Shown: positions 8,083-38,868, numbered from the stretch's first letter. The stretch is DNA of 64,000 bases from an uncultured Peptococcaceae bacterium (GCA_964637365.1 CAZWWH010000001.1:132269-196268); one strand, 5' to 3'. Notes: generated by a model not told the origin, from the sequence alone. Made by a program: numbers and translations.

Positions 8083-8151
8083 ATAAAAGCCTGTTAAGAA
8101 AAACTTAGAGGAGGCCAAGGCCTCCCCTTTTTCCATGCGGCACATCTGAAA

Positions 8152-17172: not shown

Positions 17173-18213
17173 TTATTCAACCGCAGATTGACTGAAGTTC
17201 AATCCAATAGAACCGCTTTCACATTCTACCTCCATTTGGTCCGCGGTATTGTTTTTGGAATGCATGGTTCCTTCAATTTTTTTACCATCAATGGAAATAT
17301 CTCCATATTCTGCTTTCAATAGATAACCGTATTCCGCTTCGGCTCCAGTAAGATTTAACGTAATATTACCGTACCCCGCATCAATTTCTGTTTTGCCCCG
17401 TAAATCACCACTGATGTCGGCATCGCCGCTTTCCAAGGAAAGATCCAGACCCTTGGAAGACACCTTCTTCATGGTCAAGCTACCATATTCCACGTCGCAT
17501 TCCAAAGTAGCCAGTTGAGCATTGTCAAAGGTCACTTCACCGCTTTCGGCGTCCAAAATCCAATGATCGGTTCCTTGACATTCCGTGATTTGTACATTGC
17601 CGTATTCTGCGGACATGGTGCTCTTACCCAAACTACATTTTTTCAACACAAGATTACTGCTTTCGGCAGCGATTTCAGCATTTTCCGCTTTCACATTTTC
17701 CAAAGTCAACGCATCACCGTATTCGTTATTCAACACCAAATGATCTGTCGCGAGATCCTTTACCAAAATCTCACCTTCTGCAATGATATTTACCGAAGAA
17801 AATTTTGCATCATTGGGAACTGTTACCGTAATTTTCGCCGAATCATCAATGCCCTCCCCAAACATCATAATGCCATGATAGGAAAATTTATAATGTAGGA
17901 ATAAAGTACCGTCCTTCACTTCATAAGAGGGCTGGCGGTCTTTCAGAAAGTTGGAGCATTGAATGGAATAGCTATCCCCTGGGATAACTTCAACGCTGCC
18001 TAGCTCTGTTGTAATATCAATTGCGGAAAACGCTTCGATCTCCGTTTTATCCATAGTTACAAGGTCTTCTGCTTTATATTCCGTGATTTTTTGGTTCTCG
18101 CTCCAATAAAGGTTCGGAAAACCTCCGGAAATAAATCCCACAGCAGCGATACCGCCGCCGACCACAACAAGTACGATACCGACAATCAAAAGAATCTTTA
18201 CCGGTTTTTTCAT
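17173..18213 (-). CDS. DUF4097-family membrane-anchored beta-helical/adhesin-like protein
   Basis: N-terminal TM anchor, then repetitive beta-strand-rich segments with recurring GD/SG/EYG patterns typical of the DUF4097 'putative adhesin' fold; third gene of the PadR-DUF1700-DUF4097 module. Confidence 0.6.
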   Translation of the reverse strand: MKKPVKILLIVGIVLVVVGGGIAAVGFISGGFPNLYWSENQKITEYKAEDLVTMDKTEIEAFSAIDITTELGSVEVIPGDSYSIQCSNFLKDRQPSYEVKDGTLFLHYKFSYHGIMMFGEGIDDSAKITVTVPNDAKFSSVNIIAEGEILVKDLATDHLVLNNEYGDALTLENVKAENAEIAAESSNLVLKKCSLGKSTMSAEYGNVQITECQGTDHWILDAESGEVTFDNAQLATLECDVEYGSLTMKKVSSKGLDLSLESGDADISGDLRGKTEIDAGYGNITLNLTGAEAEYGYLLKAEYGDISIDGKKIEGTMHSKNNTADQMEVECESGSIGLNFSQSAVE

Positions 18214-18312
18214 ATTTCTTTCCTCCTCTGTTTATGAAAGGCCACCACGCCGCAGACGATGCCGAAAACAGTGGCGAACGCCGTTAAGAAACAGCTAATA
18301 TTTTTCGTTCTC

Positions 18313-18912
18313 TTATTCAACTTCTTGACCATGCTTCCTCCGTTCAATCATAAGGCGGAATAGACGCGCCATCCCGCGGAAAGTTACTTTGGTGAGATAA
18401 TAGGAAAAGAAAAACAATAAAATCCCCGCGCCAATACAACCGATACTGCAGCCGTAATAAGCAACATAATTATAGATGGAATCTGCATGTGCAAAAAATC
18501 CCCAAAAGATACCACCGATTCCCCCGGCCGCTAACGCAATGGATGTGACCCAAAAAGATATTACCACAGAAACAACGGTGATAACCAAAGAGAAAATTAC
18601 AGCGATAATCGCAATGCCTATGGGAAGCGCGATGGGAGAAGCCAATACCGCCAAAATCACCACCCACATGGCTCGGAGTCCCTTTTTCGGTGAAACCGAA
18701 GGTTCTTCCTCCATTTCCTTAACGGCATAGTCAGCGGAAAGCTGCAAAGCGATATCCTTTACGGCCCCCAACTCCGCAATGACCTCATCCTCCCGCTCGG
18801 GCCCGGCTTCAGTCAAATATTCATCATAATATACCAGGGCATTGTCACGTTCCTCCTGAGGAATATGGGATAATTCCCGTTCCAAAGCGGATAAAAACTG
18901 TTCTTTATTCAT
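18313..18912 (-). CDS. DUF1700-family membrane protein
   Basis: N-terminal soluble helical region (MNKEQFLSALERELSHIPQEERDNALVYYDEYL…) followed by 3 TM helices; start overlaps the PadR stop (GGAGGTG RBS). Confidence 0.65.
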   Translation of the reverse strand: MNKEQFLSALERELSHIPQEERDNALVYYDEYLTEAGPEREDEVIAELGAVKDIALQLSADYAVKEMEEEPSVSPKKGLRAMWVVILAVLASPIALPIGIAIIAVIFSLVITVVSVVISFWVTSIALAAGGIGGIFWGFFAHADSIYNYVAYYGCSIGCIGAGILLFFFSYYLTKVTFRGMARLFRLMIERRKHGQEVE

Positions 18913-19225
18913 TGATTTCACCTCCAAACATAATATCTTCCACAGTGGTACGATAATTGATCCATTCCTTACGATATTCCTCCAGCTGCTCACGGCCTTC
19001 ATCGGTAATGGCGTAATAACGGCGGTTCCGTCCCTGGTAAGGTTGGTCATAAGTGGTCAGAAAGCTGTTTTTTTGTAACCGGCGCAGGACTGGATAAAGC
19101 GTGGACTCAGAAATTTCCATTTTTTCCTTCATCCTCTGGGTCAGGATATATCCGTAGGCATCCCCCTGTTCCATAATGGCCAAAACGCAGCTGTCCAATA
19201 AAGCTGCACCAAAAGGAAAGACCAT
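18905..19225 (-). CDS. PadR-family transcriptional regulator
   Basis: 106-aa winged-HTH with the PadR hallmark (GYILTQRM…STLYPVLRRLQKNSFL…RRYYAITDEGRE). Confidence 0.85.
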   Translation of the reverse strand: MVFPFGAALLDSCVLAIMEQGDAYGYILTQRMKEKMEISESTLYPVLRRLQKNSFLTTYDQPYQGRNRRYYAITDEGREQLEEYRKEWINYRTTVEDIMFGGEINE

Positions 19226-19395: not shown

Positions 19396-21374
19396 TCACC
19401 GAAGCTGATATTTTTTTATCTTTTTATATAATGTAGATTTTCCCATATTCAGCATTTTCGCCGCCTGGGCCACGTCATGATCCGTAGCCGTCAGGGCTTT
19501 TTGAATGGTTTCTATTTCCGCATCCCGGATTGGGTCTGGGGAAATTAGAGATTTAGACGGCGCGATTGACGTAGAGAATACGTCATCGGGAAAATTTCCG
19601 GGAACGATCCATTCGCCATTACCGGTAGTTACCGCATAGACAACGGCCTTTTGCAGTTGGCGCACATTACCGGGCCAATCACCATGAAGCAAAATGCTTT
19701 TCGCCTCAGAACTCAGTCGGGGTACCTGCCACTGCATTTTGCCGCAGTACTCCTGAATAAAGTGCTCTGCCAATAAAACGACGTCGTCATCGCGTTCCTT
19801 CAATGGTGGAATGACAATTTTCAATGCAGAAAGACGGTAATATAAATCTTCACGGAACAGGCGTTTCCGCACAAGCTCTTGTAAATCCTGATTGGTGGCG
19901 GCGACGAGACGGAATTCCACGTCAATGTACTTATCGCCGCCAATTCGCATCACCTGATGATTTTCTAAAACCCGTAGCAGCACCGCCTGCACCTCATAAG
20001 GCATGTCCCCAATTTCATCTAAAAACAAGGTGCCCCCTGGGCCAGCTCAATTTTTCCGGGGCGGCCCTTCCGCTCGGCACCGGTAAAGCTGCCGCCCTCA
20101 TATCCCAACAGCTCACTTTCCACCAAATTTCGAGGCATGGAGGCGCAGTTTAACGCGATAAAAGGGCCGTGGGGCCGTGAGGCGTTGTGGATCGCCTGGG
20201 CAAAAATTTCTTTGCCAGTACCGCTTTCCCCTAAAATCAATACATTTTCAAAGGAGGAGGCAAAGCGCATAGAGATATCCTTAGCTTTCACAATGGAGGA
20301 ACTTTCTCCGAGAATATCCTGGAACGTCAGAGTCGCAGTATTATGATTTCTTTGGGCAATGTAGCTGTCAATTTGTTTCGGGTCACTGATACGGATTACC
20401 ATACTGTCGGAAACATCGGCCTGCTCCCCCATAATGGGTCTTAGGCTGAACAGGTAGTTTTTATCTCCCTCCGGCAGAAGCAGTGTATCCTCTAAATTAT
20501 TAACGTTGGCTTGAAGCGACAGCATATGCTTTAACGGCGAATTCTCTCGAAGAAATTCACAAAGGTTGTACTGACGTTCCGAATCCTCCTTGATGCCAAG
20601 GATATTAATGCTTTTTCGATTAGCTTTCAAAATTTTCCCGTGATTCTCCGCCAAAACAATACCTTCATCCATAAAAGTAAGGGTGGCCTCCAGCATTTGA
20701 TTGGTCTTGCGGAGCTCCTCGTTCCGCTTTTTGATTTCCATTTGCTGACCTATGGACAAGGCCATGGAGGACGTCCAGCAAAGAGCATTGATTTGATCCC
20801 GATGATATTCCGTGGTCCAGTATTCCTCCGGCATTAATCGGGCCAAGGCAATGATCCCGACACTCTGCCCCTTTCCATCGAGAATCGGCGCTGCCGACAT
20901 TGTGGTCGGCTGCATGGTATCGTGAAAATTCTCCGGGCCGTTGGTTTGCACGGGACAGCCGTAGCGGAGAGCCAGCATGGTTGCGGTAGTTCCCAGATAC
21001 TCATCTTTCGAGGAAGATGCGATATACTCCGCACCGGAGTCCGTCACAGGGAATCCCTTATTGGCAATGATAGTGAAGTAGGATTTATCCTCCGGGCTGT
21101 TAAAGAAGCAAAGCAAATTCAAATCCCGATCAAATAAAATCACAATAAGGTGGGAAATGGCAAAAAGCTCCATAATTTCATCGGTAATCATTGCCTTTGT
21201 AGTCTCTATCAGCAATTTATTTTTTTGAAAAAGATAATTATTCTGTTCCACACTGGGATCTGGCGGAAAAAGATCCTGATATGGGTGGATGCCATAGGTA
21301 AAGGAGCGCTCCCATGACAGGGCTATTTCCTCCCGAATCAGGGGATTCCCCGAGGGACGAATTCCTTTTTCCAC
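19396..21374 (-). pseudogene. sigma-54-dependent activator (GAF-PAS-AAA+-HTH, AcoR-like) disrupted by a -1 frameshift
   Basis: ORFs 20019-21374 and 19396-20028 are the N- and C-halves of one activator; the break is at a C5/G5 homopolymer (20033-20037). Restoring one G gives …GKIELAQGGTLFLDEIGDMP…, the canonical activator sequence. Confidence 0.75.
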
Positions 21375-22139
21375 ATAATCCCTTTTCGCCCGTTCCAGTA
21401 TTGTACCGGATATGCGCCGTTCAAGGTAAAAGGCAAAGCCATCACTTGCCGAAAATATGCCGCAAGGATCAACCGCAAAGAATATGCCAATGCCAACCCC
21501 ATTATTCGCCTTTACAAAAACCGTTGCTCGGCACTACGTATGGAACGCAAACGTGGTAAGCACGACGATGTACTAATAAATGCCGCCCTTGCCGTTGCCA
21601 AAGAGCGTATGCAACGGGCAAAGAACGATCCCGATTATGCCAACGGACAGTATGAAGCAGATATACTTCGTGAAGAACTCTACGCCGAAGCGGACAGACG
21701 ATTAAACGGCAAATAACACAGATTGGAGGTGAGTGCCGTGAAAGAAAAGTATATTGACGAAAAGGAACTGAATATGTACCGCATCCAGCTGGCACCGCCG
21801 AAGTGGGATTTACAGGAATATATTGTGACCTATCTGAAAGAGCAAGATGACCGAACGAATGATGCTCGCCCAGCGGCTTGGTTTCTGTTTTGATTGCCAC
21901 AGCATATTTTATATGGATTATGACGATTTGGATGAATACGGTGATCCGAAAAAGAAACCAATCAAGCCAATGATGTATACCGATATTGCCACCGACCACG
22001 AATACAGCTCCGCCAATACCGCACACAAAAATGTGAAAAGGCACTTGCTAAACTAAAAGAAACCATAAAAGACTTGATATAACGAAAAAAGCCCCGTTAG
22101 AAATGCAGAATTTACTGCGCTCCCAACAGGGCAATTTAT

Positions 22140-24314
22140 TTATTTCCGCCTTTTGAAAACAAATGCAAAAACAAGCCCTAATGCAAGAAACAATACGCTT
22201 ACAATCATTACGATCCAATCGGTTGCAGGTACAGTATTCTGACCTTGCGATTGGGTTTGACCGTTACTGTTTGGTTGCGCATTGCCGTCAGGTCGTTGCA
22301 TCTGACCGCCGAAATCCCCATTTTCACCGTCAGGCAGTTCAGGCGGTGCGCCACCTTGCATTTGTTCGCCTCCGAAGCCGCCTTGGTTTCCGTTCGGCAT
22401 TTGACCATCAGGCATCTGAGAAATTGAACTATCTTCTGAGCTGCCATTTTCTGTAGCATCCGATTCTCCCGAAGGTGTTTTGTCGGTTGATTCTGTGGTT
22501 TCATTATCCTCAGCATCAGTCTGCGGTTTTTGAGTATTACCATCAAACTTATCTTTGCCGCCGCCCATAGTATTGCCCATAGAACCCATATCATTGATTT
22601 GAATATCACCGGCATCTATAAGGGTATCACTCTTTTGGGTATCAGAGGTAGAGCCAATTGTTCCGTCAAGTTGAGCACTCACGCTTTCTGCACGAAGCAA
22701 ACAGAACTCTTTAAGAGTCGTAATGCCTTTTTCAAATTCTTCATAAGTGCAGAACTTTGTAGGATCCTTTTCAACATATGGAGAAATCATTGCATTGACG
22801 TTATCTATCATCTCTGAGAAATAACCGCTATCGAAATAGGTCACAATAAATTCCGAGAAATACTTATGGTACAGTTCGGTATATTCTTCATTCTCGAAGA
22901 TCCAAGCAATCATCGGTCTATCTTCGGTGTTGCCGCCGGATACAGGAGAGTCAACCGGATAGTTGACAAGGTTGGTAGCACCGCCCGCAGACTCGAATCC
23001 GCCGAAAGCAAGGTTATAGTCCCACGGAACCATTTGCATCTGACCGTCTTTTTCGTAGAGATAATAGTTATGGATCATCGATCCGGTATAGCTGTCAAAA
23101 TTCAAAACAAAGTTATGCACCACGAAATAACGGATTACTTTTTCGATATCAACAGTATCTTCAAGCTCTTCGCCGTTACTCAGTTTTTTGAGAGCTGCGA
23201 TCAAACGTGCTTTATCGCTGTCGGAAACATCAGTTTTCGCATTGTCAAAGATGTTGGCATAGCTTTCGATCTCATCGTCAATGTATTTGAGCAATACATC
23301 GTCGCTGCCATTGGTCATACCGCCTTTATCTCCGCCTTGCATATCTCCACCGGGTATCTGTCCGCCCATTTCGGGAACGGTACCGCCTTGTTGCATCTGT
23401 CCGTTTGTATCTGATGTCGAACCGTCTGTAGTTGTTTCGTTATTAGGAGGTGTCATTCCGCCTTGTGCGTTACCTGCATTGGGCTCTACCGCTGTTTCTC
23501 CGCTCGGTAACTCAGGAGGTGTTGTGCCGCCCTGTGACTGACCACCTTGCATATTTTCGCCTGGCATCTGCGGAGTGGTTTGATCGGTATTACTGCTTGT
23601 TGTATCTTGCGTGGTAGTCGAGGTGTCGGCATCCTCGGTGTTGCCGAGGAAGTCATCCATATCGAACTTCTCGCCGTTGCCTCGTCCACCTCCCATACTT
23701 TGACTGTCGGGCTTATAGAGTTCACCATAATTGTTTCCGTAATTACGTTGCAGGAAAGATTTTTCTACACCTTCTACCGCAATGTAAAGCCCCCAATCTT
23801 CACCGTTTACCGTAATATAAACATAACTGCAAAGCGGTGAAGAAACGCCCATTTCAGCCATCATCTGATAGGCCAGATAATCCTTCATATAGGTGTTGTC
23901 CTGAATGATATTGTTTAGGCACAGCTTATCCAGACCGTAGTAGGTGTTGGTACTGTCGTAATGGTCAAACTCGATTTTGAAGCTGTAACGGTCGTTTCCG
24001 TAGGATGCCACCTGTGTCAGCGAAGTGTTGCCTTTTCCACGAATCGCCACATTTTTATACGCTTCATTATCAATGACAACAGAACAGGCATAGTATTCTT
24101 CGCTTTTGCAGTTTGCCGTAAATTCTTCCCAATCCTCCATAATAATATCAATGGTGTGGACAGCAGAGGTATCAAACAGCTTATTTTCATAGCCCATTAC
24201 GGTAGAAGCCTTTTGAACACCGAAACTTTCGGCATTCATAAACAATACGGTAAGAAGCAACGTAACAGCAAGAACAACACAGCAAATTTTATCAAAATGC
24301 TTATGTGTTGACAT
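22140..24314 (-). CDS. CotH kinase-family protein, membrane-anchored at both ends, with a long Gly/Gln/Met/Pro-rich low-complexity segment
   Basis: 724 aa; CotH-like core (…YGELYKPD…, …YYLYEKDGQMQMVPWDYNLAFGGF…); N-terminal signal anchor and C-terminal TM (WIVMIVSVLFLALGLVFAFVFKRRK). Confidence 0.65.
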   Translation of the reverse strand: MSTHKHFDKICCVVLAVTLLLTVLFMNAESFGVQKASTVMGYENKLFDTSAVHTIDIIMEDWEEFTANCKSEEYYACSVVIDNEAYKNVAIRGKGNTSLTQVASYGNDRYSFKIEFDHYDSTNTYYGLDKLCLNNIIQDNTYMKDYLAYQMMAEMGVSSPLCSYVYITVNGEDWGLYIAVEGVEKSFLQRNYGNNYGELYKPDSQSMGGGRGNGEKFDMDDFLGNTEDADTSTTTQDTTSSNTDQTTPQMPGENMQGGQSQGGTTPPELPSGETAVEPNAGNAQGGMTPPNNETTTDGSTSDTNGQMQQGGTVPEMGGQIPGGDMQGGDKGGMTNGSDDVLLKYIDDEIESYANIFDNAKTDVSDSDKARLIAALKKLSNGEELEDTVDIEKVIRYFVVHNFVLNFDSYTGSMIHNYYLYEKDGQMQMVPWDYNLAFGGFESAGGATNLVNYPVDSPVSGGNTEDRPMIAWIFENEEYTELYHKYFSEFIVTYFDSGYFSEMIDNVNAMISPYVEKDPTKFCTYEEFEKGITTLKEFCLLRAESVSAQLDGTIGSTSDTQKSDTLIDAGDIQINDMGSMGNTMGGGKDKFDGNTQKPQTDAEDNETTESTDKTPSGESDATENGSSEDSSISQMPDGQMPNGNQGGFGGEQMQGGAPPELPDGENGDFGGQMQRPDGNAQPNSNGQTQSQGQNTVPATDWIVMIVSVLFLALGLVFAFVFKRRK

Positions 24315-24325
24315 AGTGTACCTCC

Positions 24326-24997
24326 TTAACCCATATACTCGCCGTTATAGCTCACAAGAACTGCACTGTTTACGCCGGGCATAGTGCTCAGAGCATTGAT
24401 AAAATCGGTATTATCGTTTACCATACGAATTTCGAGATTCAGTTCAATCAATCCTTTGGTTGCCGTCTTGCTCTTAACAACGCATTTTTGAACATTACCT
24501 TTGAGAAAATCCACCGCTTTGTTTTCGGCCATAGAATCAGCGCAGGAAAGAACAACGATATAAGGATTGTAATAAGATTTCTTGTTTACGAACACAAGAA
24601 GGATTGCGCCGATGATAACGCTGCCGATTACTGCAAGAGGAATAAAACCGGCTGCAAGCACAATGCCGACTGCGATTGCCCAGAAAAGAAACGCAATATC
24701 GAGGGGTTCTTTAATAGCGGTACGGAATCGAACAATAGAAAGTGCACCAACCATACCAAGCGAAAGAACCACGTTAGAAGTTACCGCTAAAATAACAACG
24801 GTGGTGATCATCGTGAGGGCAACGAGCGTTGTTCCAAAGCTGGAGGAATACATAACGCCCTGATAGGTCTTTTTATATACGAGGAAAATAAACATACCGA
24901 TGCCGAAGGCAAGAGCCAAGGCAATCGCCATATCGAGAATACCCACGCTTGCGATATTCTCCAAAAAACTTGATTTGAAAATGTCATTGAAAGTCAT
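24326..24997 (-). CDS. DUF4956-domain membrane protein
   Basis: 223 aa, 4-5 TM helices plus a C-terminal soluble domain; fits the DUF4956 family that co-occurs with VTC-domain and CotH proteins. Confidence 0.55.
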   Translation of the reverse strand: MTFNDIFKSSFLENIASVGILDMAIALALAFGIGMFIFLVYKKTYQGVMYSSSFGTTLVALTMITTVVILAVTSNVVLSLGMVGALSIVRFRTAIKEPLDIAFLFWAIAVGIVLAAGFIPLAVIGSVIIGAILLVFVNKKSYYNPYIVVLSCADSMAENKAVDFLKGNVQKCVVKSKTATKGLIELNLEIRMVNDNTDFINALSTMPGVNSAVLVSYNGEYMG

Positions 24998-25698: not shown

Positions 25699-25798
25699 CT
25701 TTTCACTCCTTTCTCATTTAGCTTCATAAAAAAGCCTCCTGTACTTGATAGCATCATTGTACAGGAGGAAGATTGAAGTTTGATTGAAGATTATTAAA

Positions 25799-27058
25799 TT
25801 ATTTTCCTAATGGAATATGCACAGTAAATTCAACCTTACCGTCATAACACAATACATCAATTTTACCACTATGTGTGGAAACGATTGCTTTCGCTATTGC
25901 AAGTCCGAGTCCATAGTGCTTGTCCTCACTATTACGGGCGGTATTCACTCGATAGAAGCGTTCAAATATCTGTTCACGCTGTTCTGCAGGGATTTCATTA
26001 CCTTTGTTTATAACGGAAAGCTTGGCGAGAGCGTGTTCCTTTGTCAAAGACAAATAGACTTCGCCTTGTTCTTTGCTATGACGAATAGCGTTATCAAGCA
26101 GTATTGAAACGATTTGTTTAAGCTGTGTGCTGTTACCTTCGATACTAATACCGTTTGCTATATTGCTGTTCAGCACGAGTCCTTTTTCAAAGGCAACACT
26201 TTCAAATGGGAGGGCTTCACCGGCAACCAAACGGCTGAAATCAATGTGTTCCATCTGCGGTGTTACGGTCTCGGTTCGAGCAAGGTCAAGAAGCTGACCG
26301 ACCAACATTCCCATACGCTCATTTTCATATTGTATATTTTGGAGCCATTGGTTATCGCCGATCTCACGGGACAAGAGTTCTGCATTTGCACTTACCACCG
26401 ATACCGGTGTTTTCAGTTCGTGACCTGCATCGGATATAAACTGCTTCTGTTTTTGATAGCTTTCTTCAAGGGGATTCACAATTTTTCTTGCAAGAAATAC
26501 CGACAGGAAAAAGAACAAAACCAAAGCCACACCGCCAAAAACCAGCGTATAACGGAATAAGGTCAAGGCGTTTTCGTTTACAACAGTATTATCCATAAAG
26601 GTAACAAGGTTGTAGCCACCTTTATCCGCTTTGTAAAAAGCAAGATTATTTTTAGTTCCGGTAGTTTCATTGCTCTTTATAATATCTTTTGCCAACACTT
26701 CCAAATCATCATTGGTATGCACTGTTGGCGGTTCATTCTTTACTTCAATAATATCACCGTCATAGGATACCGCAACGGTATAGAAAGTGGACAACTGAAA
26801 CAACGGTGATTGCGGATCAAAGCCGAGATTGAAACCTTGATTGCCATTAGTTTTTGGTCTGTTTGGCGGAATCATATCTTCAAAGGATTGCGGGAGCACA
26901 TACATTTCAGCGTGTGCCTGAAGCATCTGTTCATTTTGTTTTGCCATTTCAAAATAACTGGATGCATAAATAACACCAAGCGTTCCTACCCATAAAAGCA
27001 CAAGGATGGACATAATGGCTGCAACGATTTTTCTTTTTGATTTTTTAAACATCGTCAC
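25799..27058 (-). CDS. sensor histidine kinase (two TM, HAMP, HisKA, HATPase)
   Basis: H-box ISDAGHELKTPVSV, N/G boxes (IRHS…, GLGLAIAKAIV); overlaps the response-regulator gene by 14 nt. Confidence 0.85.
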   Translation of the reverse strand: MTMFKKSKRKIVAAIMSILVLLWVGTLGVIYASSYFEMAKQNEQMLQAHAEMYVLPQSFEDMIPPNRPKTNGNQGFNLGFDPQSPLFQLSTFYTVAVSYDGDIIEVKNEPPTVHTNDDLEVLAKDIIKSNETTGTKNNLAFYKADKGGYNLVTFMDNTVVNENALTLFRYTLVFGGVALVLFFFLSVFLARKIVNPLEESYQKQKQFISDAGHELKTPVSVVSANAELLSREIGDNQWLQNIQYENERMGMLVGQLLDLARTETVTPQMEHIDFSRLVAGEALPFESVAFEKGLVLNSNIANGISIEGNSTQLKQIVSILLDNAIRHSKEQGEVYLSLTKEHALAKLSVINKGNEIPAEQREQIFERFYRVNTARNSEDKHYGLGLAIAKAIVSTHSGKIDVLCYDGKVEFTVHIPLGK

Positions 27059-27728
27059 ACCTCAATTCATATCCAACACCACGGACTGCCTTAATTTCGG
27101 TTTTAGCTTCGATAAAACTGAGTTTTTTACGGGTAAAAGACATATATACTTCTACATTGTTATACTCGGCTTCACTCTCAAAACCCCAAATTTTTACCGC
27201 AAGTTGTTTACGGGTGAGTATCTGACCGCTATTTGCAATTAAGTATTCAAGGATTCTATATTCCTTTTCACTAAGTCTTACGCTCTGTCCGTTGGTAGTG
27301 CAAGATAATGTAAGGGTGCTTGTATCAAGGGTAATGTCCCCAAATGAAAGAATACCATCTGTTGTTCCAAGTGTTCGTCTACCGAGTGCACGGAGACGGG
27401 CAAGCAGTTCCTTTGTCATAAAGGGTTTTGTTAGATAATCGTCGGCACCGCTATCAAGACCTGTAACCTTGTCGTCAAGCTCTGCCTTTGCCGTGAGCAT
27501 CAATATCGGTGTTGCAACACCTTTGTTGCGAGCCCGTTTTACAATTTCGTATCCGTTCATTCCGGGGAGCATAACATCAAGAATTACAATATCGTAAATG
27601 TTACTCTCGATTGCGGCTAATCCATCAAGACCGTTTGCAAAATGATCTACTTCATATTTTTCAAGACGCAGGATTTCGCAAAGCGCCTGCGCCATTCTTT
27701 TTTCATCTTCGACGAGTAAAATCCTCAT
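27045..27728 (-). CDS. OmpR-family response regulator
   Basis: MRILLVEDE…D(53)VMLPGMNG receiver domain plus a winged-helix trans_reg_C (…VRGVGY); GGAGGT RBS before MRIL. Confidence 0.85.
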   Translation of the reverse strand: MRILLVEDEKRMAQALCEILRLEKYEVDHFANGLDGLAAIESNIYDIVILDVMLPGMNGYEIVKRARNKGVATPILMLTAKAELDDKVTGLDSGADDYLTKPFMTKELLARLRALGRRTLGTTDGILSFGDITLDTSTLTLSCTTNGQSVRLSEKEYRILEYLIANSGQILTRKQLAVKIWGFESEAEYNNVEVYMSFTRKKLSFIEAKTEIKAVRGVGYELRCDDV

Positions 27729-27805
27729 AGCGATACCTCCGCTTATTATCATTATACCATAAAAGATTGAAAAATGATTGAAGTATTTGAAAAACGGCGG
27801 CTCGG

Positions 27806-28189
27806 TTAGTTGTAAATTATATCGTAATTTACGATTTCTGTGGCTCTGCTGCGGATGTTATTCATCCGAGAAACCCATTCCATTTGACTGTCAGCTTTGA
27901 GTTGTTCGGTCACGCCCTCACGCTCTGCCATCTGTTCTACGAGCCGAAAAAACATATCCTCAGTCTGCTTGTTTACATCGGCAAGGTGCCTGTTCAGTTC
28001 ACATTGTGTGAGTAAGGTTGTATAAAACCCTTTGCGGTGCACCTTGATATACTGCAAGTGCCGCTGTCCCCAAATACCGATAGGCTGTTTTTCTTCATTG
28101 GGGAGTGCAAGGTCGGGCAAGTAGTAATCTCCGTGCAGAGTGTAGCTAATGCTCGTCTGTTCGTTATAAATGTGCTTCTCCATCATCAC
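27806..28189 (-). CDS. TnpV-like small protein (transposon-associated, Tn4451-family accessory protein)
   Basis: 127 aa; the …ISYTLHGDYYLPDL…PIGIWGQRHL…QMEWV… pattern resembles, from memory, TnpV proteins carried on Firmicute conjugative/mobilisable elements; not verified by search. Confidence 0.45.
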   Translation of the reverse strand: MMMEKHIYNEQTSISYTLHGDYYLPDLALPNEEKQPIGIWGQRHLQYIKVHRKGFYTTLLTQCELNRHLADVNKQTEDMFFRLVEQMAEREGVTEQLKADSQMEWVSRMNNIRSRATEIVNYDIIYN

Positions 28190-28371
28190 GCCTCCTTGTA
28201 GATCACTTTGAATTTCTTTTGCTTTCTATCAATGATTTTCAGTAAAACCTCATCCACCGCATCGGTGTACTTGCCGTTGGCAATAAGCTTATTCCGCATT
28301 TCATTCAGGCATTTTATAACTACCCGCCGTTCAAAATCATCAAGTGCTATGTAATATTTCTTATCCCGCAT
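28186..28371 (-). CDS. hypothetical 61-aa basic protein
   Basis: AAGGAG RBS 9 nt before its ATG; translationally coupled (ATGA overlap) to the TnpV-like gene. Confidence 0.45.
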   Translation of the reverse strand: MRDKKYYIALDDFERRVVIKCLNEMRNKLIANGKYTDAVDEVLLKIIDRKQKKFKVIYKEA

Positions 28372-28376
28372 ATCAT

Positions 28377-28676
28377 TTACTCCTTTAACAAATCTTGAAA
28401 CGGTGTGTCGGTGACTACGAAGGTATCGTATGTGAAGTTGGCTCCCAAGCGAAACCACATCATATAACTGTCAAGATTGGATTCGCCGTTTACCACGCTC
28501 CACGCATTAACGAAATCGAGAAACTTTTTCTTATTTTCAACCGATAGCCGTTCTGTTAGGAAATCTTCATTGAGCATCAAGACCTTCATTTGCTTTTGCA
28601 CCGCTTTGTTCTGCTTTGTGCTTCGTTCCTGTGGATCAATGTTGCCGTAATAAAATTCTTCTATAAATTTACCCAT
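28377..28676 (-). CDS. hypothetical 99-aa protein (first gene of the same-strand array)
   Basis: ORF with Firmicute codon usage; no recognisable motif. Confidence 0.45.
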   Translation of the reverse strand: MGKFIEEFYYGNIDPQERSTKQNKAVQKQMKVLMLNEDFLTERLSVENKKKFLDFVNAWSVVNGESNLDSYMMWFRLGANFTYDTFVVTDTPFQDLLKE

Positions 28677-28757
28677 ATTGTTACCTCCTTTGATTTTCTA
28701 TCATCATTTTACTCAAAGGCAGTTTGATAGTCGAATGTATGGATATAAAAGCATAAA

Positions 28758-28798
28758 AAGACAGAGAGAAAGGCGATTAAGCCTTTCTCTCTGTCTTT
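28758..28798 (-). terminator. strong hairpin/terminator separating spoIIID from the downstream array
   Basis: 18-bp near-perfect stem AAAGACAGAGAGAAAGGC/GCCTTTCTCTCTGTCTTT, U-run on the minus strand. Confidence 0.6.
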
Positions 28799-28954
28799 CC
28801 CTTTTGCAACGCCCATAAGTTAGTGTTTTGAAATTACTGCCTTATGTGGCGTGTGCAAATGTGCTTTCTCTTTTTTGTTTATCCACGTCACACGACATAA
28901 AACAATCCCATAGGGGCAATTCTTGCACCGTCGATTCATTGGGACACAAAGAGA

Positions 28955-28990: not shown

Positions 28991-29272
28991 CTATGGCTTT
29001 CGTTGAATCTTTACCTTGGCCTGATGCTCTGCAGCATATTTTTTTCGCGTGGCTTCGCCGCCTCGAAGGTGACGTTCGGCCTTGTTGATTTCTAATATCT
29101 GGCGCACTTTTTGTGCCGTTGCTTCATTAATCATCGGCAATCGCTCCGTCATATCCTTATGTACCGTTGACTTACTCACACCAAAAATGGCAGCGGTCTG
29201 ACGTACTGTGGCCGAGGATTCCATGATATAGCTGCTGATCTCCAGGACCCGTTTTTCAATATAATCCTGCAT
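28991..29272 (-). CDS. spoIIID: stage III sporulation transcriptional regulator SpoIIID
   Basis: 93 aa; …FGVSKSTVHKDMTERLP…RHLRGGEAT… is near-identical in the HTH core to Bacillus SpoIIID. Confidence 0.9.
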   Translation of the reverse strand: MQDYIEKRVLEISSYIMESSATVRQTAAIFGVSKSTVHKDMTERLPMINEATAQKVRQILEINKAERHLRGGEATRKKYAAEHQAKVKIQRKP

Positions 29273-33537: not shown

Positions 33538-34557
33538 CTATTTTTCTTTATGGACACTCAACACACCGATTTTTACAGCGCCAGCCATAATCAAAGCCGA
33601 GGCAAAGACCAACAGCAAAATGCTGTAAACCGAGGGCAACAGTGTTACCATTACGGCAAAAGCCCCCAGCAGGAAGGTAATGCCGTAGATAAACAAAACT
33701 GTATCCTTATGGCTGAATCCACGGGCCATCAACTGATGATGCAGGTGCCCCTTGTCCGCTTCAAAAATAGGCTTATGATTCATTTTTCTGCGGATGATGG
33801 CAAAAAGCGTATCAAGAATAGGGATCCCCAACACCATGATAGGGATAAAGAAGGAAATAATGGTAGCCCCTTCCGATAATCCCAAGAGGGACAGCGCTCC
33901 CACCACGAAACCAAGGAACAAGGCGCCGCAATCCCCCATAAAAAGCTGGGCAGGATGAAAATTATAGCGCAGGAAGCCCAATATACATCCCACCAGGATA
34001 ATAGCAATACTGCCACTGACGGTAAAACCTTTCGCCAAAGCCACCACAGCCAGAGACAGTGCGGCAATTCCCGAAACCCCGGAGGCCAAACCATCAAGAC
34101 CATCAATGAGATTCACAGCATTGGAAACCCCCACGAGCCATAGAAGCGTAATAGGATAACCCAGCCAACCCATATCGAAAATAACGCCATTAATTGGATT
34201 GGTAATAAATTCTAAACGGACGCCAAACCCCATCAGCACCAATGCCGCAATGATTTGACCCAATAATTTCATTTTGGGAGATATATTTTTAATATCATCG
34301 TAAAGCCCTACGGCAACGACAATCGACGCACTGAGAGCCAAACCCACAATCGTATGGGAAAACTCGCCATAAACCAGAATCCCCGCAATAAAACCGCAGT
34401 AAATGCCAAGGCCACCCAAGCGAGTCATAATACCGGTATGAACTTTACGGGCATCGGGTTCGTCATATACACCAAAATGCATGGCCATTTTTTTTGTCAA
34501 TGGCGTTACCAACAATGATATAACGACTCCGGCCAGGAAAGCAATCAATAATCTCAT
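33538..34557 (-). CDS. tagO: UDP-GlcNAc:undecaprenyl-phosphate GlcNAc-1-phosphate transferase (TagO/WecA, MraY-like GT4 family)
   Basis: polytopic; DD..N (YDDIKN), NAVNLIDGLDGLA and HHQLM motifs of the MraY/WecA family; TGAGGT RBS before MRLL. Confidence 0.8.
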   Translation of the reverse strand: MRLLIAFLAGVVISLLVTPLTKKMAMHFGVYDEPDARKVHTGIMTRLGGLGIYCGFIAGILVYGEFSHTIVGLALSASIVVAVGLYDDIKNISPKMKLLGQIIAALVLMGFGVRLEFITNPINGVIFDMGWLGYPITLLWLVGVSNAVNLIDGLDGLASGVSGIAALSLAVVALAKGFTVSGSIAIILVGCILGFLRYNFHPAQLFMGDCGALFLGFVVGALSLLGLSEGATIISFFIPIMVLGIPILDTLFAIIRRKMNHKPIFEADKGHLHHQLMARGFSHKDTVLFIYGITFLLGAFAVMVTLLPSVYSILLLVFASALIMAGAVKIGVLSVHKEK

Positions 34558-34606
34558 AATAACCTCAATTTGCCAAAACAGAATCACAACTTATTTGCAA
34601 ATTATT

Positions 34607-36142
34607 TTAAGAAGATGCACGTTTTAATTTATGGAGCAAAATCTCTTTCGTATCATTAAATTCCCGCACTTTAAGGATTGCCGCAAAGAGCAAGTAGACA
34701 GTAACGCCCATGATAATACAGCAAAGCACAAGCAGGAACACACTGTTAATGCTGAATACCCCCAGGCACCACTCAGTAAGTTTTACGGCGGCTGCCATCA
34801 ATAATGAGGAAAAGAAGATTTTCCCAAAGGACTGTACCAAGGGGCCGTAATGAAAATGGGGCATATGCTTTTTTAATGCAATAAAGAATACAAGCATATT
34901 TGCAGTTCCGGCCAAAGACGTGGCTAAGGCCAAGCCACCGACACCCATCCATTTCATGGTGAGGAAGCTAATCGCCAGGTTCACAAGAATCCCCGCACCA
35001 CCAGCATAAAGCGGCAGTTTATTATCCTCAAAAGCATAAAAGACTTTTACCATCACCAGTACAACAGCAAAAGGCAGCAGGCCGATAGCATACCACAACA
35101 AGGCAGATGAGGTCATCGCAGTAGCCGTAGCATCAAAGGCACCTCGTTGAAACAACAACGTAATAATGGGTTGGCGTAAAACCATTAAACCAACCGCCGA
35201 AGGAATTCCTAAGAACATGACCAGACCAACGCCTTTATGGATGACGCGATCCAGTCGTTCTTCTTCCCCCTTCATGGCGTATTCCGTCAGATAAGGATAA
35301 ATAGCCACCGCCATGGCAGCTACAAAAATGCCGCCGGGCAGGTTCACGACTTTGCTGGCATAGTTCAGGGCTGAAATACTGCCCTCTGCCAAGCCGGAAG
35401 CAAAAATTCGATTGATAATATAATAAATTTGATTGACCGACGTTCCCAGCACAATAGGAACCAAAGAAACCATCGCCGCCCGAACATCAGGATGATGCCA
35501 TGATAATTTCGCCTGGTAACGAAAGCCTGTTTGGGCCACACTGGGGAGGTGAATCAACATAAAGCCGACAAATCCCAATAAGGTACCAATGGCCAAGCCT
35601 TGAATCCGTGAAACCAAGCACACAGAAATGATAATAATTGCACTGCATAGCGCAGGAGCCGAAGCACTTACCAGAAAACGGTGATTGGCGTTGAGATATC
35701 CTGACAGGACCATGCCGATGCTCATAAACAGAATAGCAGGGAACATGATGCGGGTCAGCTGTACTGCCAAGGCCGCAGTTTCCCCATCAAATAACGGTGC
35801 TGTGATTTTCACCAAAATTGGCGCAAAGGCAATGCCAAGGATCGTGACGATTAGCATGACCAAGGCAACCAGGTTCAAAAAGTAATTTCCTACCAAAAAG
35901 GCTTCTTTTTTATTTTCTTCCAACAAATATTTGGTTAGCAATGGTACTGTTACTGTTACCAAGGCCGAACCCAATACTGCCTGTAAAGAATAGGGTAACG
36001 TATAGGCGACGAGATACGCGTCGGTATACATTGTTGCGCCAAAAGCGCCGGCAATGGCCATCTCCCGGACAAAGCCCAGAAGTTTTGCCACAAAATTCAT
36101 CACAACGATGACTGCCGCCGCCTTTGTAATATTGTTTGCCAT
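34607..36142 (-). CDS. murJ: lipid II / polysaccharide flippase MurJ (MOP superfamily)
   Basis: 511 aa, 14 TM; N-terminal …KLLGFVREMAIAGAFGATMYTDAYLVAYTLP… typical of MurJ/MviN. Confidence 0.8.
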   Translation of the reverse strand: MANNITKAAAVIVVMNFVAKLLGFVREMAIAGAFGATMYTDAYLVAYTLPYSLQAVLGSALVTVTVPLLTKYLLEENKKEAFLVGNYFLNLVALVMLIVTILGIAFAPILVKITAPLFDGETAALAVQLTRIMFPAILFMSIGMVLSGYLNANHRFLVSASAPALCSAIIIISVCLVSRIQGLAIGTLLGFVGFMLIHLPSVAQTGFRYQAKLSWHHPDVRAAMVSLVPIVLGTSVNQIYYIINRIFASGLAEGSISALNYASKVVNLPGGIFVAAMAVAIYPYLTEYAMKGEEERLDRVIHKGVGLVMFLGIPSAVGLMVLRQPIITLLFQRGAFDATATAMTSSALLWYAIGLLPFAVVLVMVKVFYAFEDNKLPLYAGGAGILVNLAISFLTMKWMGVGGLALATSLAGTANMLVFFIALKKHMPHFHYGPLVQSFGKIFFSSLLMAAAVKLTEWCLGVFSINSVFLLVLCCIIMGVTVYLLFAAILKVREFNDTKEILLHKLKRASS

Positions 36143-36156
36143 GGTTCTCCTTTTAA

Positions 36157-37932
36157 TTACGCCTCTTCGGAAGAAAGTTCTTTCTCAGTAGTTTCCTCTA
36201 CGTCAGCTTCCATGGAAAAGATGGAGACCTCCATCTCATCGTCATCCTGTTCCGAAAAGAGATTTGCAGCGTCGACTGAAACGTCGACCGAATTTTCTGT
36301 TCCTGTCGCAGCTCTCGCTGCTTTGCGTTCTTCCAGCAGGGCCATTTTTTCTGCCCGGGTCCGTTTCACATGATCGGATTTACGAATCACCCGCTGGACA
36401 ATGACATCCAATAAAAAATTAATTTGATTGGCTTCTTCACAAAGATTGGGAAGATTTGCCTCCAATGCGGCAACCACTGCGTCAGTATCCCCTACCAGCT
36501 TGCGATAATTGGCAAAGAAGGCGTCACTGTCATACTGTTCCGAATTCCCACAAAGAGGCACACCCACATTGTGACAAAAACTGCTTATCCCCTCTTCACC
36601 GCTGATTGCGGCAAAGGGTTTATATCTCAACGCCGCCATGGTCAAAACAGGCAAATTCATACCGATCACAAGATCTGCGGCGGAAATAATATCCATCAAT
36701 TCCTGAGGCAACAAGGAATCTCCAATATCAAAAATTTCCGCAAATTCTGTCATCTGAGACAGAACGTCTTTGGATATTTTTAAATCACGCTCATATTGGA
36801 AAGGCACAAAAACAACTGTATAACCAAAACGAACGGAATCATCAGCCAAGGACACCAAATCTCCCACGGGTATATGTTCCGATTCGGAAAGGAAGAACAC
36901 GGCCAATTTGGAATCCTCCAAAGCCCACTGCCAAGGAGTCTCATTTAAAAGACGGTGTGAACAAGAAATTTCATTCTGTAAGGAGAGGTCTTCTTTTTGA
37001 ACCGTTTCCTCATCATCAGCCGCTGTCTGGACTACGGTCTCCTCAGTAGACTCATGTTCCGGCTCAGTAATGATAATTTCAATTTCCATGGGAGTATCAA
37101 CGGTGAAACGAGCATCAGCTGCGACTAAAGGTTCTTCATCTTTCGGCAAAAGGCCTTCGGGAACCACTGTAGCAAACTGCTCCATGGGAATATCTATATC
37201 GTCAAGGCCATCAGCGTCAGATTCTTTCTTTGCTTCTTTTTCCAAGGAAGCAAAAGCTTCCGGATCCATCACCACAATTTGCAGTTCCATATCATCATTT
37301 TGATTCACTTCCACAGCAGAATCTGCCGAAGCAGACACTTCCTCCTCTTCTTTCTTCAAGGATTCTTGTTGGATCTTTTCTGACATCGCGACATATTTAT
37401 CCAAATCCCAGCAATGACTGATGGAGGTAAGATTTAGCAACGGGTCCGCAGTGATACTGATACGTCCACGGCGCATTCCCCAATCGCGTAGGCACTCTGC
37501 GGAGTCCTTATCCCGCACTGTGACGCGGGAAACCTTACGCAAGGCATTCACGATCAATTTGCGGCCCAAACCACTTTCCAGGCTACGGAATCCTTGGCCA
37601 TAAACAAATACAGGCTTTTTACGGCGTACGGCCATGCGGATCACTCTGGTATATTCGTAGTAAGAACGAAAATCTGTTTTTTCCCGCATTAAGCTGCTGT
37701 CACCGCAAATCACGATATCTGATTCAAGAATCCCCTTGTGAAGCTGGGACCACCGGCTACGGTCATAGGCAATGACTCCATAAGCAGCTGCGGTTTCCTC
37801 TGGATCGTCAGAAAAAACAACGATTTCTACATCTTCAATATGATTCCGCAGTGACTCTATTAATGAAAGTAAAGTCAACTCGTCGGCGGCAATTCCGCAA
37901 CCATAATACCCGGAAATACAAACTTTTATCAT
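36157..37932 (-). CDS. polysaccharide pyruvyl transferase (CsaB-like) with an internal ~120-aa highly acidic insertion and acidic C-terminal tail
   Basis: N-terminal pyruvyl-transferase fold (ISGYYGCGI…DIVICGDSS…VFVYGQG) interrupted by an E/D-rich low-complexity region (EEEEVSASADSAVEVNQNDDME…EEPLVAADARFT…); fold resumes afterwards; tail DDDEMEVSIFSMEADVEETTEKELSSEEA. Confidence 0.6.
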   Translation of the reverse strand: MIKVCISGYYGCGIAADELTLLSLIESLRNHIEDVEIVVFSDDPEETAAAYGVIAYDRSRWSQLHKGILESDIVICGDSSLMREKTDFRSYYEYTRVIRMAVRRKKPVFVYGQGFRSLESGLGRKLIVNALRKVSRVTVRDKDSAECLRDWGMRRGRISITADPLLNLTSISHCWDLDKYVAMSEKIQQESLKKEEEEVSASADSAVEVNQNDDMELQIVVMDPEAFASLEKEAKKESDADGLDDIDIPMEQFATVVPEGLLPKDEEPLVAADARFTVDTPMEIEIIITEPEHESTEETVVQTAADDEETVQKEDLSLQNEISCSHRLLNETPWQWALEDSKLAVFFLSESEHIPVGDLVSLADDSVRFGYTVVFVPFQYERDLKISKDVLSQMTEFAEIFDIGDSLLPQELMDIISAADLVIGMNLPVLTMAALRYKPFAAISGEEGISSFCHNVGVPLCGNSEQYDSDAFFANYRKLVGDTDAVVAALEANLPNLCEEANQINFLLDVIVQRVIRKSDHVKRTRAEKMALLEERKAARAATGTENSVDVSVDAANLFSEQDDDEMEVSIFSMEADVEETTEKELSSEEA

Positions 37933-38100
37933 GGTTTCATCCCTTCCCAACCCGATCCTTGGTCATAGAACCTTTCTAATATTCATCGGATCTGTGGTTT
38001 TATACATATAAAACTAACCTATATTATAATAAAAAAAAGACAATTCATCAAGTTTTTTCACAATAAAAGTGGAAAAGCGACACAGAAAGATGCCGCAAAC

Positions 38101-38135
38101 CAAAAAGAGCAGGGGAGGTTTGCCCCCATGCTCTT
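38101..38135 (-). terminator. rho-independent terminator after tagA
   Basis: AGAGCAtGGGGG…CCCCTGCTCT hairpin followed by TTTTT on the minus strand. Confidence 0.6.
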
Positions 38136-38142
38136 TATATAA

Positions 38143-38868
38143 TCATTTACAATCCTTCTTGACTAAGGACATAAACTTGGGTAACGCCATGGTGCGTTTC
38201 AAACGCTTTGGATCGGCGCAAAGGCGGTAAAACCATTCCAGACCGGTTTTCTGAAAAAACCTCGGCGCTCGTTTCACATTACCGGAAAGCACATCCAAGC
38301 TGCCGCCAACGCCAATTGCTACATGAATATTTGCAGCGTCATGGTACTGCGTAATCCATTGATCCTGACGGGGGAATCCCATGGCCACGAAGAGGATATC
38401 TGTTTGAGCCGCAGCAATTTCCCGAGCGATGGCGGGACTTTCTTCCTCCTTAAAGTAACCGTCACGATAACCGACAATTTCCGCTTGAGGATAATCCCGG
38501 CGAATATTGGCCACAGCAGCCTCCACCACTTCAGGATGGGCTCCCAAGAAATAAAAACGATGTTTTCCTTGGGACAACAAATTTTGTACCAGGTCAATGC
38601 CGGAGACGCGCTCTCTCAGGGGTGTACCATACCGTTCCGCCGCCCAGAGAATCCCCGAGCCATCGGCAGTAATATAATCCGCAGTCTCTACAATAGAGCG
38701 AATTTCACTGTTAGTAGCTGCAGCATAGGCAATTTCCGCATTCATGGTCACGATGCGGGAAAAGCCTCCTTCATCTACCACACGATCAATATAGGCCAAG
38801 GTTTCTTCCATAGATGCATCCACCACAGGAAGTCCCAGGACATGAATTTCTTTTCCTTTTGTCGCCAT
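38143..38868 (-). CDS. tagA: WecB/TagA/CpsF-family glycosyltransferase (UDP-ManNAc transferase, TagA-like)
   Basis: 241 aa; …ITADGSGI…FFLGA…FVAMGFPRQ(D/E)…WFYRL… family signature. Confidence 0.8.
   Translation of the reverse strand: MATKGKEIHVLGLPVVDASMEETLAYIDRVVDEGGFSRIVTMNAEIAYAAATNSEIRSIVETADYITADGSGILWAAERYGTPLRERVSGIDLVQNLLSQGKHRFYFLGAHPEVVEAAVANIRRDYPQAEIVGYRDGYFKEEESPAIAREIAAAQTDILFVAMGFPRQDQWITQYHDAANIHVAIGVGGSLDVLSGNVKRAPRFFQKTGLEWFYRLCADPKRLKRTMALPKFMSLVKKDCK

Follow-up and report, generated by a model that had tools for sequence, protein, structure and literature searches.

A membrane-anchored CotH-family protein encoded last in a conserved VTC / DUF4956 / CotH operon: a candidate extracytoplasmic kinase from an uncultured Peptococcaceae bacterium

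The CotH proteins of Bacillus are soluble. What, then, is the function of a CotH-family protein that carries a membrane helix at each end, and on which side of the membrane does it work? The question is raised by a gene at 22140..24314 (minus strand) of the window, a stretch of 64,000 nucleotides (nt) from an uncultured Peptococcaceae bacterium (GCA_964637365.1, CAZWWH010000001.1:132269-196268). A description made from this DNA alone, here called the sequence-only reading, had presented the product of 724 amino acids (aa) as an atypical CotH protein and proposed a surface- or septum-exposed kinase with a flexible, possibly metal-binding linker. Its premise, that CotH proteins are soluble and this one therefore unusual, is not supported; extracellular CotH proteins have already been described in cellulosomes and in Pel loci. 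It also missed the most informative fact about the gene, which is that cotH belongs to a conserved VTC / DUF4956 / CotH operon.

The three genes of this operon encode a VTC-domain, polyphosphate-polymerase-like protein, a DUF4956 membrane protein and, last in order, the CotH protein. The intergenic gaps are 29 nt (VTC to DUF4956) and 11 nt (DUF4956 to cotH), and the Shine-Dalgarno sequence of cotH (TAAGGAGG, 7 nt ahead of the ATG) is overlapped by the stop codon of the DUF4956 gene. In a scan of one genome per species, relatives of the CotH protein were found in at least 586 genomes, and the best 80 loci were used for the analysis of synteny and conservation. The order VTC, DUF4956, CotH is kept in 73-77 of these species-level loci, and a few of the exceptions (L005, L019 and L053) are contig ends with too little upstream sequence. 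DUF4956 adjoins cotH in 77 loci, with 62-96% identity, and VTC is adjacent in 73-76. When the open reading frames (ORFs) flanking the 80 loci were clustered, the only other recurrent neighbours were a sensor histidine kinase (44 loci) and a response regulator (42 loci).

The 80 loci are almost all from gut Clostridia, namely Roseburia, Agathobacter, Blautia schinkii, Dorea, Faecalicatena, Flintibacter, Pseudoflavonifractor, Acutalibacter, Faecalibacterium and Butyricicoccus; Blautia schinkii DSM 10518 (L022) and Flintibacter porci (L055) are among the carriers of the module. The nearest one (78% identity) belongs to a metagenome-assembled genome of an uncultured 'Clostridium sp.'. Four loci (L008, L019, L020 and L026) lie on contigs labelled Bacteroidaceae, Bacteroides faecis or Coriobacteriaceae and carry the module at 56-69% identity, which could be due to bin contamination or to lateral transfer.

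The VTC protein retains residues that are expected of a polyphosphate polymerase. R67, R69 and K83 align with R264, R266 and K281 of yeast Vtc4, which are residues mutated in catalytically dead Vtc4, and they are invariant in all 20 sequences compared. The equivalents of Vtc4 E426, S457 and K458 probably lie in the segments ILEVKW and FSKY. No transmembrane (TM) segment is seen in the sequence of the VTC protein. The DUF4956 protein gave no match in a phmmer comparison with the sequences of the PDB, VTC subunits included.

The CotH assignment itself is firm. The ORF extends from an ATG to a TAA codon and ends in ...FVFKRRK, and the Pfam CotH profile (PF08757) matches with an expectation value (E) of 2.4e-65 and 221.6 bits, against a cutoff of 23.8. 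The match consists of two stretches, which together cover the profile to position 321 of 322 and are split at positions 122/123; the second stretch (residues 349-544) corresponds to profile positions 123-321. No NCBIfam model matches the CotH or the VTC protein. The protein is similar to Bacillus cereus CotH (5JD9) in a phmmer comparison (E 1.2e-13), and a Foldseek search with its AlphaFold2 model returned 5JDA/5JD9 as the only significant PDB matches (E 9e-9), with a target TM-score of 0.70 and a predicted local distance difference test (pLDDT) score of only 50-89 in the core. Thus a CotH-family kinase domain, related to that of spore-coat CotH, is present.

The active site also appears to be intact. 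D407 and D432 align with D224 and D247 of the B. cereus chain, which are 23 residues apart. As D228 and D251 of B. subtilis CotH are likewise 23 residues apart, D407 and D432 may be equated with them, the mapping between the two Bacillus proteins being based on this spacing. The substitutions D228Q and D251A are reported to inactivate B. subtilis CotH (PMC7821199). D407, D432, H400, N405, H415, N416 and E421 are invariant in all 80 sequences, and the protein is likely to be an active enzyme. A family-specific glycine-rich segment, KPDSxSMGGGRGNGEKFDMD (residues 201-220), directly precedes the variable insert described below. All 120 close homologues have G208-G210, R211, G212, N213 and G214 of this segment, and 68 of the 80 orthologues retain R211; the segment could be a phosphate-binding loop.

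The presence of a hydrophobic helix at the N-terminus and of a C-terminal TM helix followed by KRRK is upheld by both hydropathy and structure prediction. Kyte-Doolittle windows of 19 residues exceed 1.6 only at residues 6-33 and 694-723, and the AlphaFold2 model has helices at residues 4-26 and 697-723. How common this arrangement is was assessed in three sets of relatives. A word-indexed search gave at least 8000 homologous 90% clusters, and the best 120, which were examined closely, are 624-783 aa long and align over the full query with 58-100% identity; both hydrophobic ends are present in all of them. An exhaustive search of 1.84 billion 50%-identity representatives gave 9044 relatives at E ≤ 1e-3 and 1105 at E ≤ 1e-30. 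Among the best 150 of these, the N-terminal hydrophobic segment occurs in 128, the C-terminal one in 96 (94 with a basic tail) and both in 81. The third set, 79 complete species-level orthologues with 47-78% identity, has the C-terminal helix in about 50 and lacks it in about 29 (roughly 37%). By these sequences the architecture is the rule in the subfamily and is atypical only relative to Bacillus CotH. The C-terminal anchor, found in about 60% of relatives, is optional.

The N-terminal segment shows a different behaviour. A stub of the form MSTHKxxDKICC followed by the helix is present in 79 of the 79 complete orthologues. The majority-residue fraction in these orthologues is 0.80 for stub residues 1-9, at the level of the catalytic core (0.82 and 0.78 for the two kinase halves), and 0.64 for the N-terminal helix, versus 0.31 for the C-terminal helix, 0.21 for the insert at residues 221-330 and 0.18 for the tail at residues 585-697. 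Over codons 2-12 the amino acids are fixed across 81 sequences while the synonymous codons vary (for Thr3, ACA 33, ACG 26 and ACC 14), which indicates selection on the peptide MSTHKxxDKICC. Such strong conservation of the stub argues that the N-terminal segment is retained.

The orientation of the protein may be estimated from its charges. With K5 and K9 the N-terminus is slightly basic, and the last helix is followed by KRRK, so that both helices fit an N-in/C-in topology with a loop of about 670 residues outside. In seven related representatives a lipoprotein signal (for example LTGC, LGGC or ISAC) replaces the N-terminal helix, and none of the seven has a C-terminal TM helix. These variants support an extracytoplasmic domain that needs an N-terminal membrane tether. 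Most likely, then, the bulk of the CotH domain lies outside the cytoplasmic membrane. Two other modes of surface attachment were looked for in the 724-aa protein. It has no lipobox, as C11 and C12 precede the hydrophobic core, and no LPXTG motif stands before the C-terminal helix, where the sequence reads ...QNTVPATDW and is unconserved in homologues (NAMSASSW, NAISSSSW and others).

The two stretches that the sequence-only reading described as low-complexity and rich in G, Q, M, P, T and D are real by composition, entropy and model confidence. Residues 201-345 contain 19% G, 14% T, 10% D, 9% Q, 8% P and 6% M, and residues 556-695 contain 17% G, 11% D and 11% Q. The entropy over 40 residues is 3.07-3.45 bits in the blocks versus 3.7-3.9 in the core, the net charge of residues 201-345 is -17 and that of residues 556-697 is -19, and both blocks, with a pLDDT below 30, are probably disordered. 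Delimited by conservation, the variable blocks comprise residues 221-330 and 585-697. Their sequence is unconserved (majority-residue fraction about 0.2), whereas the composition (G, D, P, E, N, S, Q, T and M) is kept. The insert is present in every orthologue with a length of 40-169 aa, and the length of the tail varies from 0 to 253 aa. A 9-aa indel (residue 248) and S689P are all that separates the window protein from P0002, a homologue with 99% identity. Both changes fall within the blocks, which are the fast-evolving, indel-prone parts of the protein. In two other homologues, P0090 and P0092, the tail has an additional helix-like segment that is not of low complexity (...LSELYEELERLGLISEMP..DEILLWVKELI..GKLD..W...), indicating that the tail is able to host folded inserts.

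It might be asked whether the blocks are repeat arrays or artefacts of assembly. Tandem Repeats Finder reported no repeat in the DNA of 22000-24500, so the blocks are not DNA tandem arrays. Of the internal near-repeats claimed for the protein, a single weak one was recovered by self-comparison: a 12-mer common to both blocks, GGTTPPELPSGE at residue 262 and QGGAPPELPDGE at residue 653, with 8 of 12 residues identical. Region-wise shuffling gives a mean of 0.03 such hits, and this pair is the only significant internal repeat. The insert, with its 40-169 aa, occupies the same site in 120 of 120 close homologues and in 79 of 79 complete orthologues from independent genomes, and therefore the blocks are not an assembly artefact. 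Since the second Pfam stretch begins at profile position 123, the first block is an insertion within the CotH domain and not a linker between domains.

Directly after the kinase domain, and outside the Pfam match, lies the motif TLIDAGDxQIxDMGSM(G/N)xxMGG (residues 556-584), in which M576 and G577 are invariant among the close homologues. The motif is kept even where orthologues end soon afterwards, without tail or C-terminal anchor. It also contains the sole MxxM/MxxxM arrangement of the protein, M-G-S-M-x-x-x-M at residues 576-583. Inspection of the variable blocks themselves revealed no MxM, MxxM or MxxxM pairs; their Met residues are widely spaced and amount to 5.7% and 3.9%, versus 2.6% in the core, and neither His nor Cys belongs to their most frequent residues.

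From these observations we propose that the window protein is a CotH-family kinase, Fam20C-like and catalytically competent, which is situated on the outer face of the membrane and encoded last in a three-gene operon; for this statement as a whole a probability of about 0.5 is estimated, with most weight on the observed parts. That it is an active ecto-kinase forming a functional unit with VTC and DUF4956 is considered quite probable, while a role of polyphosphate as the exported donor or product is considered doubtful. The mechanism would be as follows. With both termini inside and the loop of 670 residues outside, the ectodomain would work outside the cell, and the conserved stub and N-terminal helix would dock the kinase to DUF4956/VTC. 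The cytoplasmic VTC enzyme would polymerise polyphosphate from adenosine triphosphate (ATP), and polyphosphate or another phosphoryl donor would be passed outward through or alongside DUF4956. With this donor the CotH ectodomain could then phosphorylate proteins or glycans of the envelope, and possibly also its own Ser/Thr-rich blocks. The insert and tail would act as flexible, negatively charged spacers, the tail being a stalk to the optional second anchor. Rather unlikely, in our estimate, is the strictest version, in which the trio is a bacterial counterpart of the eukaryotic VTC machine combined with an ecto-kinase, polyphosphate serving as an ATP-independent donor threaded through DUF4956. 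Of the surface- or septum-exposed kinase of the sequence-only reading, the kinase is backed by the invariant aspartates and the surface exposure by the charges next to the helices and the lipoprotein variants; the placement at the septum is not supported.

Several points weigh against this proposal. The outward orientation is deduced from the charge distribution and the lipoprotein variants, and the sequence after the N-terminal helix, [MVIL]-N-[AG]-E (M26-N27-A28|E29 here), could be a signal-peptidase I site, in which case the N-terminal anchor would be removed; the -3 residue is Met in the window protein, and many orthologues have V/I-N-A/G. The catalytic loop is four residues longer than that of B. 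cereus CotH, and the AlphaFold2 model is mediocre near it (pLDDT 38-57). Polyphosphate synthesis by VTC, its conduction by DUF4956 and its use by CotH are steps that we infer, and DUF4956 has only sub-threshold similarity to MgtC/SapB, which is no known channel. The acidic blocks would repel polyphosphate, and they show no enrichment of Fam20C-like [ST]-x-[DE] motifs (6 observed versus 4.5-4.7 ± 1.8 expected). Regulation of the trio by the adjacent two-component system is unproven, as a terminator-like hairpin lies between the histidine kinase gene and the VTC gene.

The closest competing explanation concerns the mode of anchoring. If the N-terminal helix were a cleaved Sec signal, the protein would be a type I surface protein tethered solely by the C-terminal TM helix through a disordered stalk of about 110-140 residues, and where that helix is missing, as it is in roughly 37% of orthologues, the kinase would be released into the medium. 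A Gly/Pro/Thr-rich stalk followed by a C-terminal TM helix and a basic tail is a frequent layout of Gram-positive surface proteins. The hydrophobic region here is short (about 17 residues), the motif after it fits the -3/-1 rule in many orthologues, and the Streptococcus intermedius homologue has been described as secreted (mBio 2025). Nevertheless, a stub conserved like the catalytic core under selection at the protein level is unexpected for a disposable signal peptide, the -3 residue of the window protein is Met, many species do without the C-terminal anchor, and the variants with lipoprotein signals keep an N-terminal tether, so that we hold this explanation to be possible yet doubtful. 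Location outside the cell, where ATP is scarce, would also suit a non-catalytic surface ligand or adhesin that uses the kinase fold as a scaffold, as proposed for CotH3 of Mucorales, and fungal CotH proteins are described as invasins. This is improbable in view of the catalytic aspartates and nearby H, N and E residues, whose invariance over 80 species-level orthologues with 47-78% identity argues for retained chemistry, and in view of the obligate linkage to a triphosphate-tunnel enzyme, which points to phosphate chemistry.

Two further explanations are regarded as very unlikely. One is that the gene encodes a spore-coat CotH of the classical Bacillus type, a kinase of the mother cell with coat proteins as its substrates during sporulation. 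The Pfam family and fold are the same and the catalytic aspartates are kept, and the host, with a spoIIID homologue 4.7 kb away, may sporulate. The Bacillus spore coat, however, assembles in the cytoplasm of the mother cell, whereas two membrane helices with a basic C-terminal tail, and relatives with lipoprotein signals, place the domain of the window protein outside the cytoplasm. Moreover, there is no cotB- or cotG-like gene with Ser/Lys/Arg repeats among the neighbours, the gene stands in a VTC/DUF4956 operon behind a two-component system, and according to the literature the same trio occurs in non-sporulating streptococci and bifidobacteria. The other, which had been suggested for the linker by the sequence-only reading, is that the Met/Gln/Gly-rich segments bind metal, for example Cu(I). 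The variable blocks contain about twice as much Met as the core, and the arrangement at residues 576-583 resembles MxxM motifs, presumably like those of Cu-binding proteins. The blocks, with Met at only 4-6%, lack MxxM and MxM pairs and are not conserved in sequence or length, and their most frequent residues include neither His nor Cys. No metal-resistance gene is found nearby (annotated positions 1-46 kb), and for the histidine kinase and response regulator the heavy-metal sensor families score far below cutoff, as do dozens of other families. The blocks look instead like flexible, negatively charged disordered spacers, neither metal sites nor assembly artefacts.

Comparison with known systems shows both shared and distinct features. 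The CotH proteins of B. subtilis and B. cereus (5JD9, 5JDA) belong to the same Pfam family, are the best structural match and share the catalytic and metal-binding aspartates. They are only about 360 aa long, have only 14% identity to the window protein over the fold alignment and are encoded in a different operon; in addition, they lack its two membrane helices, its 110-aa insert, its 113-aa tail and the four extra residues of its catalytic loop. CotH has been reported as a distant relative of Fam20C (PMC7821199). Fam20C acts outside the cytosol, as is proposed here, and the window protein has acidic, disordered, Ser/Thr-rich sequence, but neither sequence nor fold comparison gave a direct match to Fam20C, and S-x-E-type motifs are not enriched in the blocks. 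Fam20C also has the setting of an ATP-loaded lumen, which bacteria do not have. With the eukaryotic VTC complex (Vtc4 polymerase plus membrane channel) the window locus shares the equivalents of R264, R266 and K281 and a VTC gene beside that of a multi-pass membrane protein. The eukaryotic VTC has SPX and TM domains as well, whereas the VTC protein of the window is the tunnel domain alone. The dockerin-bearing CotH proteins of cellulosomes are extracellular, occur in anaerobic Firmicutes and have no defined function; unlike the window protein, they are attached by dockerin-cohesin pairs and not by TM helices, and no VTC/DUF4956 context is reported for them.

The nearest parallels are loci in which the three families stand side by side. 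The trio of cotH, polyphosphate polymerase and DUF4956 has been described as an accessory group beside Gram-positive pel operons (Whitfield et al. 2020). In S. intermedius (SIR_1592-1594), CotH and DUF4956-like mutants make less Pel and aggregate less, and the authors did not find the trio outside Pel loci (mBio 2025). In both the pel-locus trio and the window trio the CotH protein is predicted to be exported, and the DUF4956 partner in S. intermedius, described as an MgtC-like TM part plus an ACT domain, agrees with the weak MgtC match found here. The pel-locus trio, however, adjoins pelDEADAFG and a DUF4832 gene; the window trio is without them and is preceded by a two-component system instead. 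The streptococcal CotH has a C-terminal FN3 domain, in contrast to the low-complexity blocks and TM anchor of the window CotH. Pel-type and DUF4832 genes are absent both from the annotated part of the window (positions 1-46 kb) and from the flanking sequence of the 80 related loci, and the Pel-independent trio with a two-component system appears to be the common form in gut Clostridia. The trio being common away from Pel loci corrects the published impression that it occurs only there. A further parallel, likened by description, is NELoc-2 of Clostridium perfringens, in which a VTC gene, a gene for a 'tubulin-FtsZ-like' membrane protein of about 222-226 aa and a CotH gene are found in the same order as in the window. 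Its CotH protein has 497 aa, and the locus is duplicated around a resolvase and linked to a chitin synthase ORF and a putative glycosyltransferase. The family is therefore known yet uncharacterised, and the module has already been noted in the literature; our literature searches found no functional or biochemical study of a bacterial VTC-domain protein, a DUF4956 protein or a membrane-anchored CotH.

The features of the operon and its surroundings are collected in Table 1.

Table 1. Position of the cotH-family gene, its predicted parts, the neighbouring genes and other features of the window
Feature	Position	Strand	Evidence
cotH-family gene, 724 codons plus TAA stop	22140..24314	-	ORF, translation, Pfam CotH, fold match
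Conserved, putatively cytoplasmic stub MSTHKHFDKICC, codons 1-12	24279..24314	-	conservation 0.80 (residues 1-9)
N-terminal hydrophobic helix, residues 10-26 (predicted signal anchor; possibly cleaved)	24237..24287	-	hydropathy, AlphaFold2 helix 4-26
CotH domain, N-terminal part, residues 45-220, last motif KPDSxSMGGGRGNGEKFDMD	23655..24182	-	aligns with 5JD9 residues 66-142; conservation 0.82, 0.77
Glycine-rich segment, residues 201-220	23655..23714	-	
Hypervariable acidic low-complexity insert, residues 221-330	23325..23654	-	conservation 0.21; pLDDT <30; splits kinase domain
CotH domain, C-terminal part, residues 331-555, catalytic loop D407...N416 and D432	22650..23324	-	alignment to B. 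cereus CotH
Conserved post-domain motif TLIDAGDxQIxDMGSMG, residues 556-584	22563..22649	-	conservation 0.63
Hypervariable acidic low-complexity tail/stalk, residues 585-697	22224..22562	-	conservation 0.18; pLDDT <30
C-terminal TM helix and KRRK, residues 698-724 (predicted second anchor, cytoplasmic tail)	22143..22223	-	hydropathy, AlphaFold2
Intrinsic terminator 3' of cotH, closing the operon	22085..22132	-	hairpin -28.1 kcal/mol, z -6.9, then UUUUUU
DUF4956 membrane protein, hydrophobic N-terminal two-thirds and soluble C-terminal part	24326..24997	-	PF16316, E 8e-10
VTC-domain (triphosphate-tunnel, polyphosphate-polymerase-like) protein, 223 aa	25027..25698	-	PF09359, E 3.2e-37
Terminator-like hairpin, histidine kinase stop to VTC start	25728..25768	-	10-bp GC-rich stem, then UUUUUU
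Sensor histidine kinase	25799..27058	-	generic profile matches, none at NCBIfam cutoff
OmpR/PhoB-type response regulator	27045..27752	-	profile matches
TnpV, DUF6809 protein and small ORF	27806..28800	-	TnpV: PF14198, E 1e-46
Terminator	28755..28800		20-bp stem
SpoIIID homologue	28991..29272	-	PF12116, E 5e-41
Sigma-54-dependent activator, two overlapping ORFs	19396..21374	-	Sigma54_activat profile, broken at 95/97
PadR regulator, HAAS-domain membrane protein, DUF4097 'toastrack' protein	17173..19225	-	
Two MttB-family methyltransferases (487 and 486 aa), BCCT betaine/carnitine/choline transporter, two PAS/sigma-54 activators	3151..9612		
GT4-family MraY/WecA-like transferase, two MurJ-type flippases, two polysaccharide pyruvyl transferases, WecG/TagA transferase, LCP ligase	33538..45659	-	

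The region between the histidine kinase and VTC genes folds as a whole at -26 kcal/mol (z -3.6), and its hairpin lies only about 30 nt before the VTC start codon. If the trio is transcribed from the promoter of the two-component system, this hairpin must be read through, or else it has another role such as processing or attenuation. All NCBIfam matches of the histidine kinase and response regulator are far below cutoff, and no phosphate, metal or cell-wall regulon was assigned to them. No RNA family of Rfam was found in 21300-29500. The segment with TnpV and the DUF6809 protein, directly upstream of the response regulator gene and with a terminator at its upstream end, looks like a mobile-element remnant. 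The possibility that the module is generally the cargo of a mobile element was considered and rejected, as TnpV adjoins it in only one of the 80 loci.

Farther from the operon, the SpoIIID homologue hints that the host is or was a spore former. On the other side of cotH, the sigma-54-dependent activator is interrupted at a run of five G (CAGGGGGCACC) just ahead of the Walker B motif GGTLFLDEIGDM, which is read in the other frame. Six G would be expected, so that the frame is shifted by -1, and the gene is a pseudogene, a slippage variant or the product of a sequencing error. The PadR regulator, HAAS-domain protein and DUF4097 protein, encoded in a row, look like a typical envelope-signalling set unrelated to the CotH finding. 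The methyltransferases, transporter and activators near the beginning of the window suggest a quaternary-amine demethylation locus. The large group of transferases and flippases, about 6-18 kb upstream of the response-regulator end of the module, suggests a cell-wall glycopolymer cluster for a pyruvylated secondary cell-wall polymer; it is not conserved with the module.

The interest of the locus thus lies in the logic of the operon rather than in the anchors or the low-complexity sequence. To our knowledge, no energy source has been established for extracellular phosphorylation in bacteria, and a kinase domain that probably lies outside the membrane and is genetically tied to a polyphosphate-polymerase-like enzyme is a testable candidate for powering it. 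If the trio is a VTC-like machine combined with an ecto-kinase, a polyanionic surface layer would be expected in many gut Clostridia. As the family is very large and concentrated in Roseburia, Blautia, Dorea, Faecalibacterium, Flintibacter and other abundant commensals of the gut, a role in surface chemistry, aggregation or host interaction would matter broadly.

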